NCBI GenBank assembly: GCA_963558075.1
Contig: CAUWFN010000001.1
Span: 7,000 to 70,999, forward strand
Direction: 5' to 3'
Origin: an uncultured Clostridia bacterium
Lineage (GTDB): Bacteria; Bacillota; Clostridia; Peptostreptococcales; Anaerovoracaceae
Length of the DNA stretch: 64,000 bases
Below, piece by piece: positions 10,356-13,487 of the stretch. Each line of letters begins with the position of its first letter. Positions within the stretch are counted from its first letter, which is position 1. Below the pieces are notes generated by a model that ran no database searches, had not been told where the DNA came from, and saw only the letters and a program-made list of their open reading frames with translations. The position numbers were made by a program, and so were the translations under genes.

Positions 10356-12281
10356 ATGCTTTTTAAAACAACAGATGCTCATGAGGAGTTCAGAGCAAAG
10401 ATTAGAGCTTTTGCTGAAGAAGAAGTTAAACCTATAGCGTTTTTACTAGATAAAGAGAATAAATTTCCAGAGGAAGCTGTTAAGAAACTTGGCAAGATGG
10501 GACTTATGGGAATTCCATATCCAAAGGAATATGGCGGTGCAGGTCTAGATGCCCTAAGCTATGCAATCGCAGTAGAAGAACTTGCTAGAGTTGACGGAGG
10601 AACAGGCGTAATCCTTTCTGCACATGTTTCCCTTGGCTCATATCCAATCATGGCATTCGGTACAGAAGAGCAGAAAAAGAAATATCTGATTCCGCTTGCA
10701 AAGGGTGAGAAAATCGGAGCTTTTGGTCTGACAGAGCCAAACGCAGGATCAGATGCCGGAGGAACTGAAACAACAGCTGTTCTTCAGGGTGATCACTATA
10801 TTCTAAACGGTGGTAAGATATTCATCACTAATGCTCCTTACGCAGATACTTATGTTATCTTTGCAGTAACAACTCCAAATATTGGAACAAGAGGCATCAG
10901 TGCATTCATCGTAGAAAAAGGCTGGGAAGGATTTGAATTCGGAGACCACTACGATAAGATGGGTATCAGATCATCATCCACAGCAGAACTTATTTTCAAC
11001 GACGTAAAAGTACCAAAAGAAAACCTTCTCGGAAAAGAAGGCGAAGGATTCAAGATTGCAATGTCAACACTTGATGGCGGAAGAATTGGTATCGCATCCC
11101 AGGCGCTTGGTATTGCTCAGGGTGCTTACGAACATGCTGTAGAATATGCTCTAGAGAGAGTTCAGTTTGGAATTCCAATTGCACATCAGCAGGTTAACTC
11201 ATTTAAGATTGCAGATATGGCAACAAAACTGAGATGTGCTAGATTCCTGATTTACTCAGCAGCTGAGTTAAAAGAAAATCACGAACCTTTCGGAATGGAA
11301 TCTGCAATGGCGAAACAGTACGCATCAGATATCGCACTAGAGGTTGTAAATGATGCTCTTCAGATTTTCGGAGGAACAGGTTACCTCAAGGGTATGGAAG
11401 TAGAAAGAGCATACAGAGATGCAAAAATCTGTACAATTTACGAAGGAACAAACGAAATTCAGCGAGTAGTAATCGCATCACATATTTTAGGTAAAGCACC
11501 AAAACAGACTGTAGCAGCAAAGCAGAAGGGACCTATCACAGGACAGAGAAAGAAGATCATCTTCGCATCAGGAACTGCACAGGAAAAGGTTGATCAGCTT
11601 GTAGAGGTTCTCAAGGGCGATGGCTTTGATTTTACTGTAGGAATCGATCCTCTAACACCAATCGTTGAAGCAGACAGAGTTGTTTCAGCAGGAAAGGGTA
11701 TCGGACCAAAAGAAAATATGAAGCTTATCGAAGATTTAGCTAAACAGGCAGGCGCTGCAATCGGCTCATCAAGACCAGTTGCAGAAACCCTGAAATATGT
11801 ACCGCTTGACAGATATGTTGGAATGTCAGGTCAGAAGTTTACAGGAAATCTGTACATCGCTTGCGGAATCTCCGGAGCAGGACAGCACCTAAAGGGCATC
11901 AAAGACGCTACTACAATTGTTGCAATTAATAAGAACAAGAATGCTGCTATCTTCAAGAATGCAGACTATGGTATCGTTGGAGATGTAAATGAAATTCTAC
12001 CGCTTCTAACAAAGGCTTTAGACAACGGAGAAGAAAAGAAACCGGCACCGCCTAGAGTTAAGATGAGAAAAGCAACTGTACTTAAGGAGCCTTCACCATG
12101 GACTACATATGTATGTGATGGATGCGGATACGAATACGATCCAGCAGTTGGAGATCCTGAGGCAGATGTTGCACCTGGAACTACTTTTGAGGCTCTTCCA
12201 GAAGAATGGATTTGCCCAGTATGCGGTGAAGAAAAAACTGCTTTTATCGAAGTTGAGAAGACAGTTAAGGAGGAAAAATAG
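10356..12281 (+). CDS. Fusion protein: acyl-CoA dehydrogenase + ETF-alpha C-terminal FAD domain + rubredoxin
   Basis: aa 1-380 are ACAD-like ([18 protein letters not shown]). aa ~400-560 carry the ETF-alpha signature [15 protein letters not shown]. aa 582-631 are rubredoxin (CDGCG...CPVCG). Confidence 0.85.
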
Positions 12282-13487
12282 ATGCAGTGCGTAAGAAAAG
12301 TAACAGAAGATTTATACTGGGTTGGAGCAAACGATAAGAGACTCTACCTGTTCGAAAATATTCATCCTATAGAAGACGGAGTATCATATAACGCATATCT
12401 TCTTCTAGATAAGAAGACTGTACTCTTTGATACTGCTGACTGGTCTGTAGGCAGACAGTTTATCGAAAACGTGGAATATGTATTAGATGGAAGACCTCTA
12501 GATTACCTAGTTGTAAACCATATGGAGCCTGACCACTGTTCATCTATGGAAGAGGTTTTGATTAGACATCCGGAAACACAGGTTATCTCAACAGAGAAGG
12601 CTCTTATGCTGATGCACCAGTTTGGATTTGAAGTAGAAAACTTTATCCAGGTTACAGAAGGCGATACTATGAGCTTCGGAAAACATGAGGTAGTGTTTGT
12701 AAATGCACCGATGGTTCACTGGCCAGAGGCTATGGTGACATTTGATAAGACTGATGGGGTACTGTTCTCAGCAGACGCTTTCGGTTCATTCAAATCACTT
12801 GATGGTGTACTATTTGCAGATGAGGTTGATTTTGATAGAGACTGGATTGATGAGGCAAGAAGATACTATACTAATATTGTAGGAAAATATGGACCTCAGG
12901 TTATGAACCTGCTGAAGAAGGCAGGCGGACTAGATATCAAATATATCTGTCCTCTTCACGGACCAGTATGGAGAAAAGATATAGGATACATTCTTGACAA
13001 GTACATCCACTGGGCTACATATACTCCAGAGGAGCAGGGCGTTCTGATTGCATATGCATCAATGTATGGAAATACAGAAAATGCAGCTCAGATTCTAGCA
13101 TCAAAGCTGTACGAAAGAGGAATGACAAAGGTTAGAATGTATGACGTATCAAAGACTCACGTATCATATCTGATCAGTGAAGCGTTCAAATACAGCCACA
13201 TGGCACTATTATCGGTAACTTACAATCTGAACGTATTTCCGCCAATGGAAAACTTCGTACTTGATATGAAGAAGCTGAACCTTCAGAAGAGAGTTGTTGG
13301 AATCGTAGAAAATGGTTCTTGGGCACCTCAGGCAGGTTCAATCATGGGAGACATCCTTGATGAAATGAAGCAGATGACAGTTCTGAACGAAGAAGTTTCT
13401 ATTCAGTCATCCGTAAGCAAAATGACAGAAGATGAGCTTGACTCACTAGCAGAAAGCATCATCGAGTCAATGAAACAGAGTTATTAA
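12282..13487 (+). CDS. Flavodiiron protein (FprA-type: metallo-beta-lactamase-like diiron domain + flavodoxin domain)
   Basis: HMEPDH diiron motif. C-terminal flavodoxin-like SMYGNTE. ATG immediately follows the upstream stop codon. Confidence 0.85.
   Translation: MQCVRKVTEDLYWVGANDKRLYLFENIHPIEDGVSYNAYLLLDKKTVLFDTADWSVGRQFIENVEYVLDGRPLDYLVVNHMEPDHCSSMEEVLIRHPETQVISTEKALMLMHQFGFEVENFIQVTEGDTMSFGKHEVVFVNAPMVHWPEAMVTFDKTDGVLFSADAFGSFKSLDGVLFADEVDFDRDWIDEARRYYTNIVGKYGPQVMNLLKKAGGLDIKYICPLHGPVWRKDIGYILDKYIHWATYTPEEQGVLIAYASMYGNTENAAQILASKLYERGMTKVRMYDVSKTHVSYLISEAFKYSHMALLSVTYNLNVFPPMENFVLDMKKLNLQKRVVGIVENGSWAPQAGSIMGDILDEMKQMTVLNEEVSIQSSVSKMTEDELDSLAESIIESMKQSY

Follow-up and report, generated by a model that had tools for sequence, protein, structure and literature searches.

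What would an acyl-CoA dehydrogenase (ACAD), fused to part of ETF-alpha and to a rubredoxin, do beside a flavodiiron protein (FDP)? The question is raised by two adjacent genes in the 64-kb stretch of DNA that was analysed as a whole (the window). With a probability of roughly 85%, these genes encode an orthologue of butyryl-CoA:oxygen oxidoreductase (BOOR) in a stand-alone bicistronic operon, read here by analogy with the Fusobacterium nucleatum enzyme. BOOR of F. nucleatum comprises FN1424 (BCR, named 'butyryl-CoA reductase' by its authors, PMC12288474) and FN1423 (FDP) (Bystrom & Wolthers, Biochemistry 2024, 63:2352; cited here through PMC12288474 and PMC12630350).

Domain architecture of the two proteins

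A single 641-aa chain joining ACAD, ETF-alpha and rubredoxin had been read in the preliminary description of this DNA, and the ORF list, Pfam and sequence motifs agree with it (Table 1). The ACAD, ETF_alpha and Rubredoxin domains all score above curated Pfam cut-offs. In the fusion protein, the three ACAD profiles are covered over their whole length (Acyl-CoA_dh_N 6-118, Acyl-CoA_dh_M 122-217, Acyl-CoA_dh_1 229-377), and are followed by ETF_alpha (436-516, 91 bits) and Rubredoxin (585-630, 72 bits). The ETF-alpha FAD motif is found at aa 500-514, CDGC at 587-590 and CPVC at 620-623. Pfam, NCBIfam and PDB alignments agree on this three-module architecture, which is that of BCR.

The best solved relatives of the ACAD domain are Clostridioides difficile Bcd (5ol2_C, E = 4e-143) and 4l1f, and the rubredoxin domain matches PDB rubredoxins with E-values down to 1.5e-17. 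The fused ETF piece aligns with EtfA residues 189-305 of 307 (1efp_A) and 206-330 of 331 (5ol2_A), while EtfA domain I and EtfB are absent from the fusion protein by PDB alignment. A preceding stretch of approximately 35 aa (about 400-435) is predicted to form one folded unit with the ETF domain, and residues 400-556 of the structure model have pLDDT values of 80-90. As a whole, the model of the fusion is too weak to resolve inter-domain docking and geometry (mean pLDDT 67.8, pTM 0.45, from a shallow alignment of 32 sequences). Database labels for the fusion gene are limited to 'acyl-CoA dehydrogenase family protein' or 'rubredoxin'.

The second gene encodes an FDP with a metallo-beta-lactamase-like di-iron domain (aa ~34-227; ODP and Lactamase_B 34-227 in Pfam) and a flavodoxin (FMN) domain (aa ~254-393; Flavodoxin_1 from 256, 28.5 bits against a cut-off of 25 bits). 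The di-iron ligands are H80, E82, D84, H85, H146, D165 and H226, the first four lying in the HMEPDH motif at aa 80-85. With these two domains and none further in its 401 aa (Pfam), the protein is a class A FDP of the FprA/ROO type. It aligns end to end with Desulfovibrio gigas ROO (1e5d, 5-398) and Moorella thermoacetica FprA (1ycf); these rank among its best PDB relatives together with the E. coli flavorubredoxin core, which is the best match.

Table 1. Coordinates of the features of the locus, numbered from the first letter of the window.
Feature	Position	Strand	Details and source
Terminator-like hairpin with T-run	9973..10006	+	15 pairs, 6 GC (terminator scan); same arms in inverted-repeat finder
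Perfect 17-nt palindrome AAGAATTTGAAATTCTT	10115..10131		241 nt upstream of fusion ATG; one exact match in window
RBS GGGAGG of fusion gene	10342..10347	+	8 nt 5' of ATG; sequence reading
Fusion gene, BCR-type (ACAD, EtfA domain II, rubredoxin)	10356..12281	+	641 aa, ATG; ORF list, Pfam, NCBIfam
Butyryl-CoA-dehydrogenase-type ACAD domain, aa 6-377	10371..11486	+	Pfam N/M/C full-length; Glu363 in IYEGTNEIQ motif
ETF-alpha domain II (FAD domain), aa ~436-556	11661..12023	+	Pfam ETF_alpha, PDB alignments
Rubredoxin domain, aa 585-630; Fe(Cys)4 = C587, C590, C620, C623	12108..12245	+	Pfam, PDB matches
RBS AAGGAGG of FDP gene, within 3' end of fusion gene	12267..12273	+	Sequence reading
Class A FDP gene	12282..13487	+	401 aa, ATG; Pfam ODP, Lactamase_B, Flavodoxin_1
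GC-rich hairpin	13543..13567		Terminator scan, sequence reading

Operon organization and conservation of the gene pair

The fusion and FDP genes form a stand-alone bicistronic operon with terminators on either side. The FDP had been described as an FprA-type protein, carrying HMEPDH and a flavodoxin domain, whose gene starts on the nucleotide after the stop codon of the fusion. The junction sequence (GAA AAA TAG ATG CAG) and Pfam bear this out, with the TAG at 12279-12281 abutting the ATG. The RBS of the FDP gene lies inside the fusion gene, and the abutting stop and start codons suggest translational coupling. The upstream hairpin ends the serine dehydratase alpha gene (9034-9927) and cuts the operon off from upstream transcription. 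The downstream hairpin is read as a terminator common to the operon and a convergent gene (13573-14844), because GTTTTTT comes after it on the + strand and a stretch rich in T on the - strand. Neither EtfB nor full EtfA is encoded in the operon or in the 10 kb flanking it to the left and right.

A set of 80 loci, each from a distinct species, was compared. Full-length identity between the fusion and the orthologues of these 80 species is 74-89%, and full-length fusions all fall into one cluster at 50% identity. The FDP gene lies directly downstream of the fusion at 79 of the 80 loci, and the remaining contig ends 137 nt past the fusion gene. The pairing is thus far beyond chance, and the two genes are neighbours in related genomes wherever the downstream sequence is available. 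A pair not conserved as neighbours, which the preliminary description had named as grounds for refutation, is therefore not what the loci show. Among the 76 loci with both gene ends readable, the spacing varies between an overlap of 1 nt and a gap of 170 nt, and the FDP start codon often abuts or overlaps the stop codon of the fusion. Apparent single-chain fusions of BCR and FDP at two loci (gap about -1200 nt) were rejected, as the tblastn alignments had run past the stop codon. The module is very widespread, being present in at least 513 species genomes, and its gene pairing is strictly conserved.

Comparison with Fusobacterium was made with species other than F. nucleatum, rather than with FN1424 and FN1423 themselves. 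Aligned over its full length, the fusion of the window shares 79-82% identity with Fusobacterium-genus proteins (L076, L078, F. hominis and F. perfoetens) and with that of one Fusobacteriaceae locus (L043), and the FDPs of these loci are 65-67% identical to that of the window. Both subunits are therefore orthologous in sequence to those of other Fusobacterium species. The most conserved part of the fusion is ETF-alpha domain II (mean column identity 0.88). The catalytic base E363 and the rubredoxin ligands C587, C590, C620 and C623 are invariant in 78 fusion sequences, and H80, E82, D84, H85, H146, D165 and H226 are invariant in 79 FDP sequences, so that the set of catalytic base and cofactor ligands is complete.

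Proposed electron path

[quoted passage not shown] A chain from acyl-CoA to O2 is supported for the window pair because biochemical work has demonstrated one in F. nucleatum, where architecture and gene pair are the same, and the window pair is a close orthologue of the operons of the genus Fusobacterium. The orthologue would be expected to behave in the same way, and its cofactors to act in the order proposed below.

In the first step, butyryl-CoA or a similar short-chain acyl-CoA would be oxidised to the enoyl-CoA at the ACAD FAD, with Glu363 as the catalytic base; the one indicator of chain length is the similarity to butyryl-CoA dehydrogenases, which points to substrates of this size. Electrons would then pass to the FAD in the fused EtfA domain II, and from it singly to the rubredoxin module with its Fe(Cys)4 centre. 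From there they would reach the FMN of the partner FDP and its di-iron site, where O2 would be reduced to water. Such a path would require neither free ETF nor free rubredoxin, nor an NAD(P)H:rubredoxin reductase. Butyryl-CoA may be supplied by fermentation, for example by a lysine-to-butyrate pathway, and the crotonyl-CoA formed could re-enter the reductive branch. A complete lysine fermentation cluster (two kdd genes, kamA-E and a CoA-transferase) is encoded 38 kb downstream in the same window, with all matches above curated cut-offs.

The preliminary description had envisaged electrons moving from an acyl-CoA, or from NADH, to O2 or NO without free carriers. Its route from acyl-CoA to O2 is supported, given the F. 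nucleatum BOOR; NADH as a source is at odds with the lack of EtfB and EtfA domain I, and NO as an acceptor with the lack of such activity in the homologue. The proposed link between butyrate metabolism and oxygen detoxification is likewise supported by the F. nucleatum biochemistry as described in PMC12288474 and PMC12630350. Its implied novelty cannot be upheld: the window operon is an ordinary copy of the system described in 2024, and the conservation of the fusion-FDP pair in butyrogenic gut Firmicutes has already been reported (PMC13404960).

According to these accounts (PMC12288474, PMC13404960), BOOR lets strict anaerobes remove O2 with the weak reductant butyryl-CoA (about -10 mV) in place of NAD(P)H, and returns crotonyl-CoA to the energy-conserving route through Bcd-Etf/Rnf. 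Butyrate output may also be cut under oxygen intrusion, which bears on both oral and gut ecology. The window contributes one further orthologue, from an uncultured lysine-fermenting Bacillota bacterium, and the useful outcome is a correct annotation of the fusion gene.

Regulation of the operon

The intergenic region upstream of the fusion gene (9928-10355, 428 nt) contains the perfect 17-nt palindrome noted in the preliminary description. The upstream regions of 75 orthologous operons hold no counterpart within 4 mismatches at a matching position, and ten perfect palindromes of the same class occur in the 64 kb. The palindrome was therefore rejected as a conserved operator; it is a possible operator of a lineage-specific kind. 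The promoter scan returned no confident sigma-70-like site on the + strand upstream of the operon, and Rfam no riboswitch or leader RNA match in the leader, sub-threshold matches being confined to the terminator hairpins.

In most of the closest relatives, the operon is flanked by a divergently encoded Crp/Fnr-type regulator and a TGTTGCAwwTGCmACA operator, and in other Clostridia an Rrf2 regulator lies beside it. The TGTTGCAwwTGCmACA palindrome is not in the window leader, even with 3 mismatches and variable spacing, and a search of the whole window found the Crp/Fnr-type palindrome nowhere near the operon. No Crp/Fnr or Rrf2 homologue was detected within the 64 kb. It is conceivable, though unlikely, that the BOOR operon has become separated here from the Crp/Fnr regulator with its operator and from Rrf2, and is either controlled by some factor through the palindrome at 10115-10131 or constitutive. 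If so, the same enzyme would follow a different oxygen-response logic. A weaker variant of this reading would have another acyl-CoA of amino-acid origin as the preferred substrate.

Substrate, acceptor and direction of electron flow

That the same machinery serves another physiological substrate, such as valeryl-CoA, isobutyryl-CoA or another amino-acid-derived short acyl-CoA, is improbable. The organism appears to ferment amino acids, and ACAD specificity can shift with few substitutions. However, conservation of the ACAD domain averages about 85% over 78 orthologues, Fusobacterium included, and the solved structures nearest to it are those of butyryl-CoA or short-chain ACADs.

A less probable alternative concerns the acceptor, with the pair acting mainly as an acyl-CoA-fed NO reductase against nitrosative stress. 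The best solved relative of the FDP is the core of the E. coli NO reductase, and the regulators that flank the operon in other species belong to the Rrf2 and Crp/Fnr families, which include NO sensors. The top NCBIfam models for the FDP are likewise named 'anaerobic nitric oxide reductase flavorubredoxin', but the scores are far under the curated cut-offs (NF008887, 218 against 635 bits; NF003954, 199 against 711 bits). With these scores under the equivalog cut-offs and no rubredoxin domain on the FDP in Pfam, the protein is not a class B flavorubredoxin (NorV). Its second-sphere residues, D53 and Y262, are both identical in the Fusobacterium orthologues. The position matching E. coli D52 is an Asp, as in the NO-selective enzyme, whereas the other is Tyr262, as in O2-selective FDPs. 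These residues were rejected as a test of O2 against NO, since second-sphere swaps in the E. coli FDP left its selectivity unchanged and sequence cannot decide the preference (PMC13133992). The F. nucleatum complex, reported in PMC12288474 to have no NO reductase activity, argues for O2.

It is very improbable that the pair works as an oxidoreductase between NADH and O2 (or NO), with NADH delivering electrons to the two flavins of the fusion as it can to Bcd-EtfAB. An ETF-type FAD domain is indeed present, and Bcd-EtfAB complexes do oxidise NADH. In bifurcating ETFs, however, the NADH-oxidising beta-FAD is carried by EtfB, and the fusion has kept EtfA domain II alone, with EtfA domain I and all of EtfB missing and no EtfB gene in the operon or its flanks. 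BOOR is moreover reported to use butyryl-CoA and not NAD(P)H (PMC12288474).

Equally improbable is a reductive role, in which the fusion would reduce enoyl-CoA with electrons from rubredoxin and the FDP would scavenge O2 on its own, sharing no more than a promoter: the published name of the fusion, the reversibility of ACAD reactions and the top NCBIfam match of the ACAD part (acryloyl-CoA reductase AcrC, 484 bits, under a cut-off of 640) would fit it, but the FDP gene follows after a short gap at all 79 loci with enough downstream sequence, the operon encodes no reductase to charge the rubredoxin, and FDPs usually receive their electrons directly from rubredoxin. The homologous proteins are also described as forming a complex with butyryl-CoA as its donor and O2 as its acceptor (PMC12288474).

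Comparison with known systems

The BOOR assignment can be set against the F. nucleatum system and three other kinds of complex. The window operon resembles BOOR of F. nucleatum in its three-module fusion followed by a class A FDP in a two-gene unit, and in a metabolic setting of lysine fermentation to butyrate, which is that given for F. nucleatum in PMC12288474. It differs in its host, an uncultured Bacillota bacterium whose nearest relatives among the matches listed are Anaerovoracaceae, Hornefia and [Eubacterium] infirmum. The window genes also abut exactly, with no adjacent regulator.

The ACAD domain is most similar to the Bcd subunits of Bcd-EtfAB complexes (C. difficile 5ol2, Acidaminococcus fermentans 4l1f/4kpu). 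The fused EtfA portion corresponds to domain II of their EtfA, which carries the alpha-FAD, and transfer from the ACAD FAD to the alpha-FAD would be the same step reversed. The window locus does not encode an electron-bifurcating complex of this type, as EtfA domain II stands alone in the fusion with no separate EtfA or EtfB nearby. Lacking EtfB, EtfA domain I and the beta-FAD/NADH site, the fusion is not expected to bifurcate. Electrons would leave it via rubredoxin to O2, whereas in Bcd-EtfAB they arrive from NADH.

A class A FDP fed by a rubredoxin centre is also found in the D. gigas chain (NADH:rubredoxin oxidoreductase, rubredoxin, ROO) and in M. thermoacetica FprA/Hrb. These chains draw on NAD(P)H as reductant, with a rubredoxin that is free or fused to an FMN reductase, whereas in the window system it is fused to an ACAD and an ETF domain, and the reductant would be an acyl-CoA. 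Class B NorV (E. coli) and the class F and H FDPs (C. difficile, Trichomonas vaginalis, Syntrophomonas wolfei) share with the window system a homologous FDP core and the principle of a self-contained chain with a fused carrier. Their extra modules are carried on the FDP itself and their reductant is NADH, whereas the window has a minimal class A FDP, with the modules placed on its dehydrogenase partner.

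Identity of the two proteins

In Fusobacterium nucleatum, a fusion protein (FN1424) and a flavodiiron protein (FDP; FN1423) form an alpha4beta4 complex, which was given the name butyryl-CoA oxygen oxidoreductase (BOOR; Bystrom & Wolthers 2024, as described in PMC12288474; also PMC12630350). In the window, the two abutting ORFs of the preliminary description are present as reported (see table), and their junction reads GAA AAA TAG ATG CAG, so that the FDP start codon immediately follows the stop codon of the fusion gene. The proposed three-module architecture of the fusion protein is recovered in domain HMM scans (Pfam and NCBIfam: ACAD, ETF_alpha and Rubredoxin), and the motifs noted earlier are located at aa 500-514 (ETF-alpha motif), 587-590 (CDGC) and 620-623 (CPVC).

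The closest solved structures to the ACAD domain are Bcd of the C. difficile Bcd-EtfAB complex (5ol2_C, E = 4e-143), A. fermentans Bcd (4l1f) and mammalian SCAD, and by sequence the domain is assigned to the butyryl-CoA or short-chain type. The ETF piece aligns with residues 189-305 of the 307 in Paracoccus EtfA (1efp_A) and 206-330 of the 331 in the C. difficile protein (5ol2_A), and so comprises EtfA domain II only, the holder of the electron-transferring FAD. The fusion protein contains no EtfA domain I and no EtfB, and neither is encoded elsewhere in the operon or within 10 kb on either side. An AlphaFold2 model of the fusion, built on a shallow 32-sequence alignment, is moderate (mean pLDDT 67.8, pTM 0.45), with residues about 400-556 (pLDDT 80-90) and the rubredoxin (about 80-86) as confident units and a low-confidence linker between them.

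The second protein had been described as an FprA-type FDP with an HMEPDH di-iron site, and this agrees with Pfam and structure alignments: HMEPDH lies at aa 80-85, and the ODP/Lactamase_B di-iron and flavodoxin domains are the only Pfam domains found, which makes it a class A FDP. End-to-end alignments were obtained with D. gigas ROO (1e5d), with M. thermoacetica FprA (1ycf) and with the E. coli flavorubredoxin core.

Features of the operon, its surroundings and the orthologous loci (L numbers, from the species scan)
Feature	Position	Strand	Source or remark
Strong hairpin and T-run	9973-10006		Ends upstream serine dehydratase genes
GGGAGG ribosome-binding site	8 nt before fusion ATG	+	Sequence read
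Fusion ORF	10356..12281	+	641 aa; ORF list
Three ACAD domains	aa 6-118, 122-217, 229-377		Pfam; full profile each, above curated cut-offs
ETF_alpha	aa 436-516		Pfam, above curated cut-off; NCBIfam agrees, match reaching aa 555
Rubredoxin	aa 585-630		Pfam, above curated cut-off; NCBIfam agrees
AAGGAGG ribosome-binding site of FDP gene	12267-12273	+	Within 3' end of fusion gene
FDP ORF	12282..13487	+	401 aa; ORF list
GC-rich hairpin, then GTTTTTT	13543-13567		Divides FDP gene from convergent gene
Lysine cluster content			Sigma-54 activator, two kdd paralogues, kamA, kamB, kamC, kamD, kamE, CoA-transferase subunit
3,5-Diaminohexanoate dehydrogenase (kdd) paralogues	53849-54910, 55190-56221	+
TGTTGCAwwTGCmACA loci	Upstream of fusion gene		L008-L033, L043, L053
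Rrf2 loci	Upstream of fusion gene		L042, L044, L048, L049, L052, L061, L064, L067
Rrf2 locus	Downstream		L068

Distribution and conservation of the gene pair

Fifteen metagenome contigs carry the identical fusion protein in the same gene neighbourhood, and the fusion has more than 8000 database matches. The nearest named relatives (~85% identical; Hornefia butyriciproducens, Eubacterium nodatum, Aminicella and Anaerovoracaceae MAGs) are annotated merely as "acyl-CoA dehydrogenase family protein", "butyryl-CoA dehydrogenase" or "rubredoxin". Clustering of a protein library at 50% identity leaves one representative (P0121) for all full-length three-module proteins, and thus the family is unusually well conserved.

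A scan of one genome per species, with the EtfA-plus-rubredoxin part alone as query, gave at least 513 confirmed relatives, of which the best 80 loci were analysed. These span Anaerovoracaceae, Eubacterium, Clostridium, Caproiciproducens, Butyricicoccus, Agathobaculum, Erysipelotrichaceae and Fusobacteriaceae. Among these best 80 of at least 513, every fusion is intact, with 74-89% identity to its counterpart in the window (three are clipped at the 5' end by the contig edge), and the FDP gene lies directly 3' of it in 79 (63-84% identical to the window FDP); in the 80th, the contig stops 137 nt past the fusion gene. The gap between the genes ranges from a 1-nt overlap to 170 nt in the 76 loci with both gene ends readable. 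Two apparent in-frame fusion-FDP proteins were alignment artefacts. No substitution is seen at ACAD Glu363, at the four rubredoxin cysteines or at the seven di-iron ligands across the same best 80 loci, and mean column identity is highest in the EtfA module (0.88) and ACAD (0.85), and 0.61-0.64 in the linkers. The modules, their completeness, their ligands and the strict co-inheritance of the pair are direct observations.

Compared with proteins of several Fusobacterium species other than F. nucleatum, F. hominis and F. perfoetens among them, the window fusion shows 79-82% identity along its entire length and the adjacent FDP 65-67%. Fusion identity is ~80% between the Bacillota window and Fusobacteriota hosts (L043 of Fusobacteriaceae; L076 and L078 of Fusobacterium), which in our judgement seems high across phyla. 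This suggests that the operon has spread horizontally among anaerobes, is under very strong constraint, or both.

Some homologues depart from this architecture. A metagenome fragment homologous to the C-terminal half (P0144) has other residues in place of all four rubredoxin cysteines (YVDLGSGYEY ... WVSPVSGE) and is ~64% identical elsewhere; a degenerate copy is one possible explanation, an artefact of assembly or sequencing another. P0137 (532 aa, 47% identity) and P0145 (555 aa, 39%) carry ACAD and EtfA domain II without rubredoxin, and may represent a related two-module family with a different acceptor.

Upstream region and associated regulators

The perfect 17-nt palindrome previously reported from the 428-nt upstream intergenic region, AAGAATTTGAAATTCTT, is found at 10115-10131. 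The 64 kb hold ten perfect palindromes of this class, which corresponds to an expectation of about 0.07 per 428-nt spacer; the site is real and mildly unusual, and no comparable site was found in any orthologous operon examined. The operon leader yielded no Rfam element, and no + strand promoter by consensus scan. A 44-aa ORF (9990-10124, + strand), which gene finders predict within the leader in several metagenome contigs (locus coordinates 9635-9769), covers the descending arm and T-run of the terminator, ends within the palindrome and has no Pfam match; it is probably not a gene.

A different palindrome, TGTTGCAwwTGCmACA, is found in 22 of the 78 examined regions upstream of the fusion gene (77 loci plus the window), at a distance of 49-148 nt, compared with a mean of 3.7 and a maximum of 9 in shuffled sequences. 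A divergent Crp/Fnr-family regulator (~224 aa; cNMP_binding and HTH_Crp_2) adjoins the operon in 19 loci, 15 of them with this motif, and the association is seen in the closest relatives of the window and in one Fusobacteriaceae locus. In 10 other loci (Eubacterium, Caproiciproducens and other Clostridia), an Rrf2-family regulator (~136 aa) adjoins the operon, upstream in 9, in agreement with a 2026 preprint (PMC13404960). Neither regulator, nor the operator of either, is present in the 64-kb window; the adjacent regulator has apparently been lost in this lineage. By sequence, a Crp/Fnr-type regulator and its operator appear linked to BOOR in Anaerovoracaceae, and the accessible BOOR literature contains no mention of such a regulator. 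Both points are mildly new and peripheral.

Genomic and metabolic context

Terminators insulate the pair on both sides, and it is therefore a stand-alone two-gene unit. Its GC content (0.40) is that of the rest of the window, and its neighbours are housekeeping genes (scpAB, shikimate kinase, serine dehydratase, an ABC transporter and a shikimate/aromatic amino-acid operon). Elsewhere in the window, Pfam finds a group II intron maturase (GIIM) domain in a short ORF at about 32.4-32.9 kb and a SCIFF peptide gene with its radical-SAM maturase at 48.7-50.2 kb.

A complete lysine-to-butyrate fermentation cluster lies at 51609-63787 (+ strand), with every match above curated NCBIfam cut-offs. The sigma-54-dependent activator bears a KDD_N domain; this and the duplicated kdd are unusual details. 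The pathway yields crotonyl- and butyryl-CoA, and the cluster is a likely source of butyryl-CoA for the operon. This setting fits a BOOR role, and the same context is discussed for F. nucleatum in PMC12288474.

Proposed electron path and relationship to BOOR

The core of the preliminary reading, electron transfer from an acyl-CoA to O2, is correct and had already been demonstrated experimentally in a close homologue. With substrates, products and complex formation taken from the F. nucleatum biochemistry, we infer by analogy the order of cofactors and the carry-over of these properties to the window orthologue. Butyryl-CoA would be oxidised at the ACAD FAD with Glu363 as base, and electrons would pass to the FAD of the fused EtfA domain II, from there to the rubredoxin Fe(Cys)4, and through the FDP FMN to the di-iron site, where O2 would be reduced to H2O.

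Another short-chain acyl-CoA is possible as the preferred substrate. NO, also proposed earlier, may be an acceptor: the best NCBIfam matches of the FDP are NO reductase models, but their scores are about one third of the cut-off. The two second-sphere positions that have been discussed in relation to substrate preference show a mixed pattern (Asp53 and Tyr262), invariant in the family including the Fusobacterium orthologues, and swapping these residues in the E. coli enzyme left selectivity unchanged (PMC13133992). The best available guide is therefore the homologue, F. nucleatum BOOR, measured to be without NO reductase activity (PMC12288474). NADH, the alternative donor of the preliminary description, is unlikely, as the fusion lacks those parts of ETF at which bifurcating complexes bind and oxidise NADH. 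The strict conservation of the pairing and the tight gene spacing contradict a reductive role for the fusion beside an FDP neighbour unrelated to it.

The preferred reading remains butyryl-CoA-dependent O2 reduction. According to the same F. nucleatum sources and the 2026 preprint (PMC13404960), butyrogenic gut Firmicutes share the conserved gene pair. By sequence, the window pair is placed as one more member of the known, very widespread BOOR operon, and the system is thus one already known.
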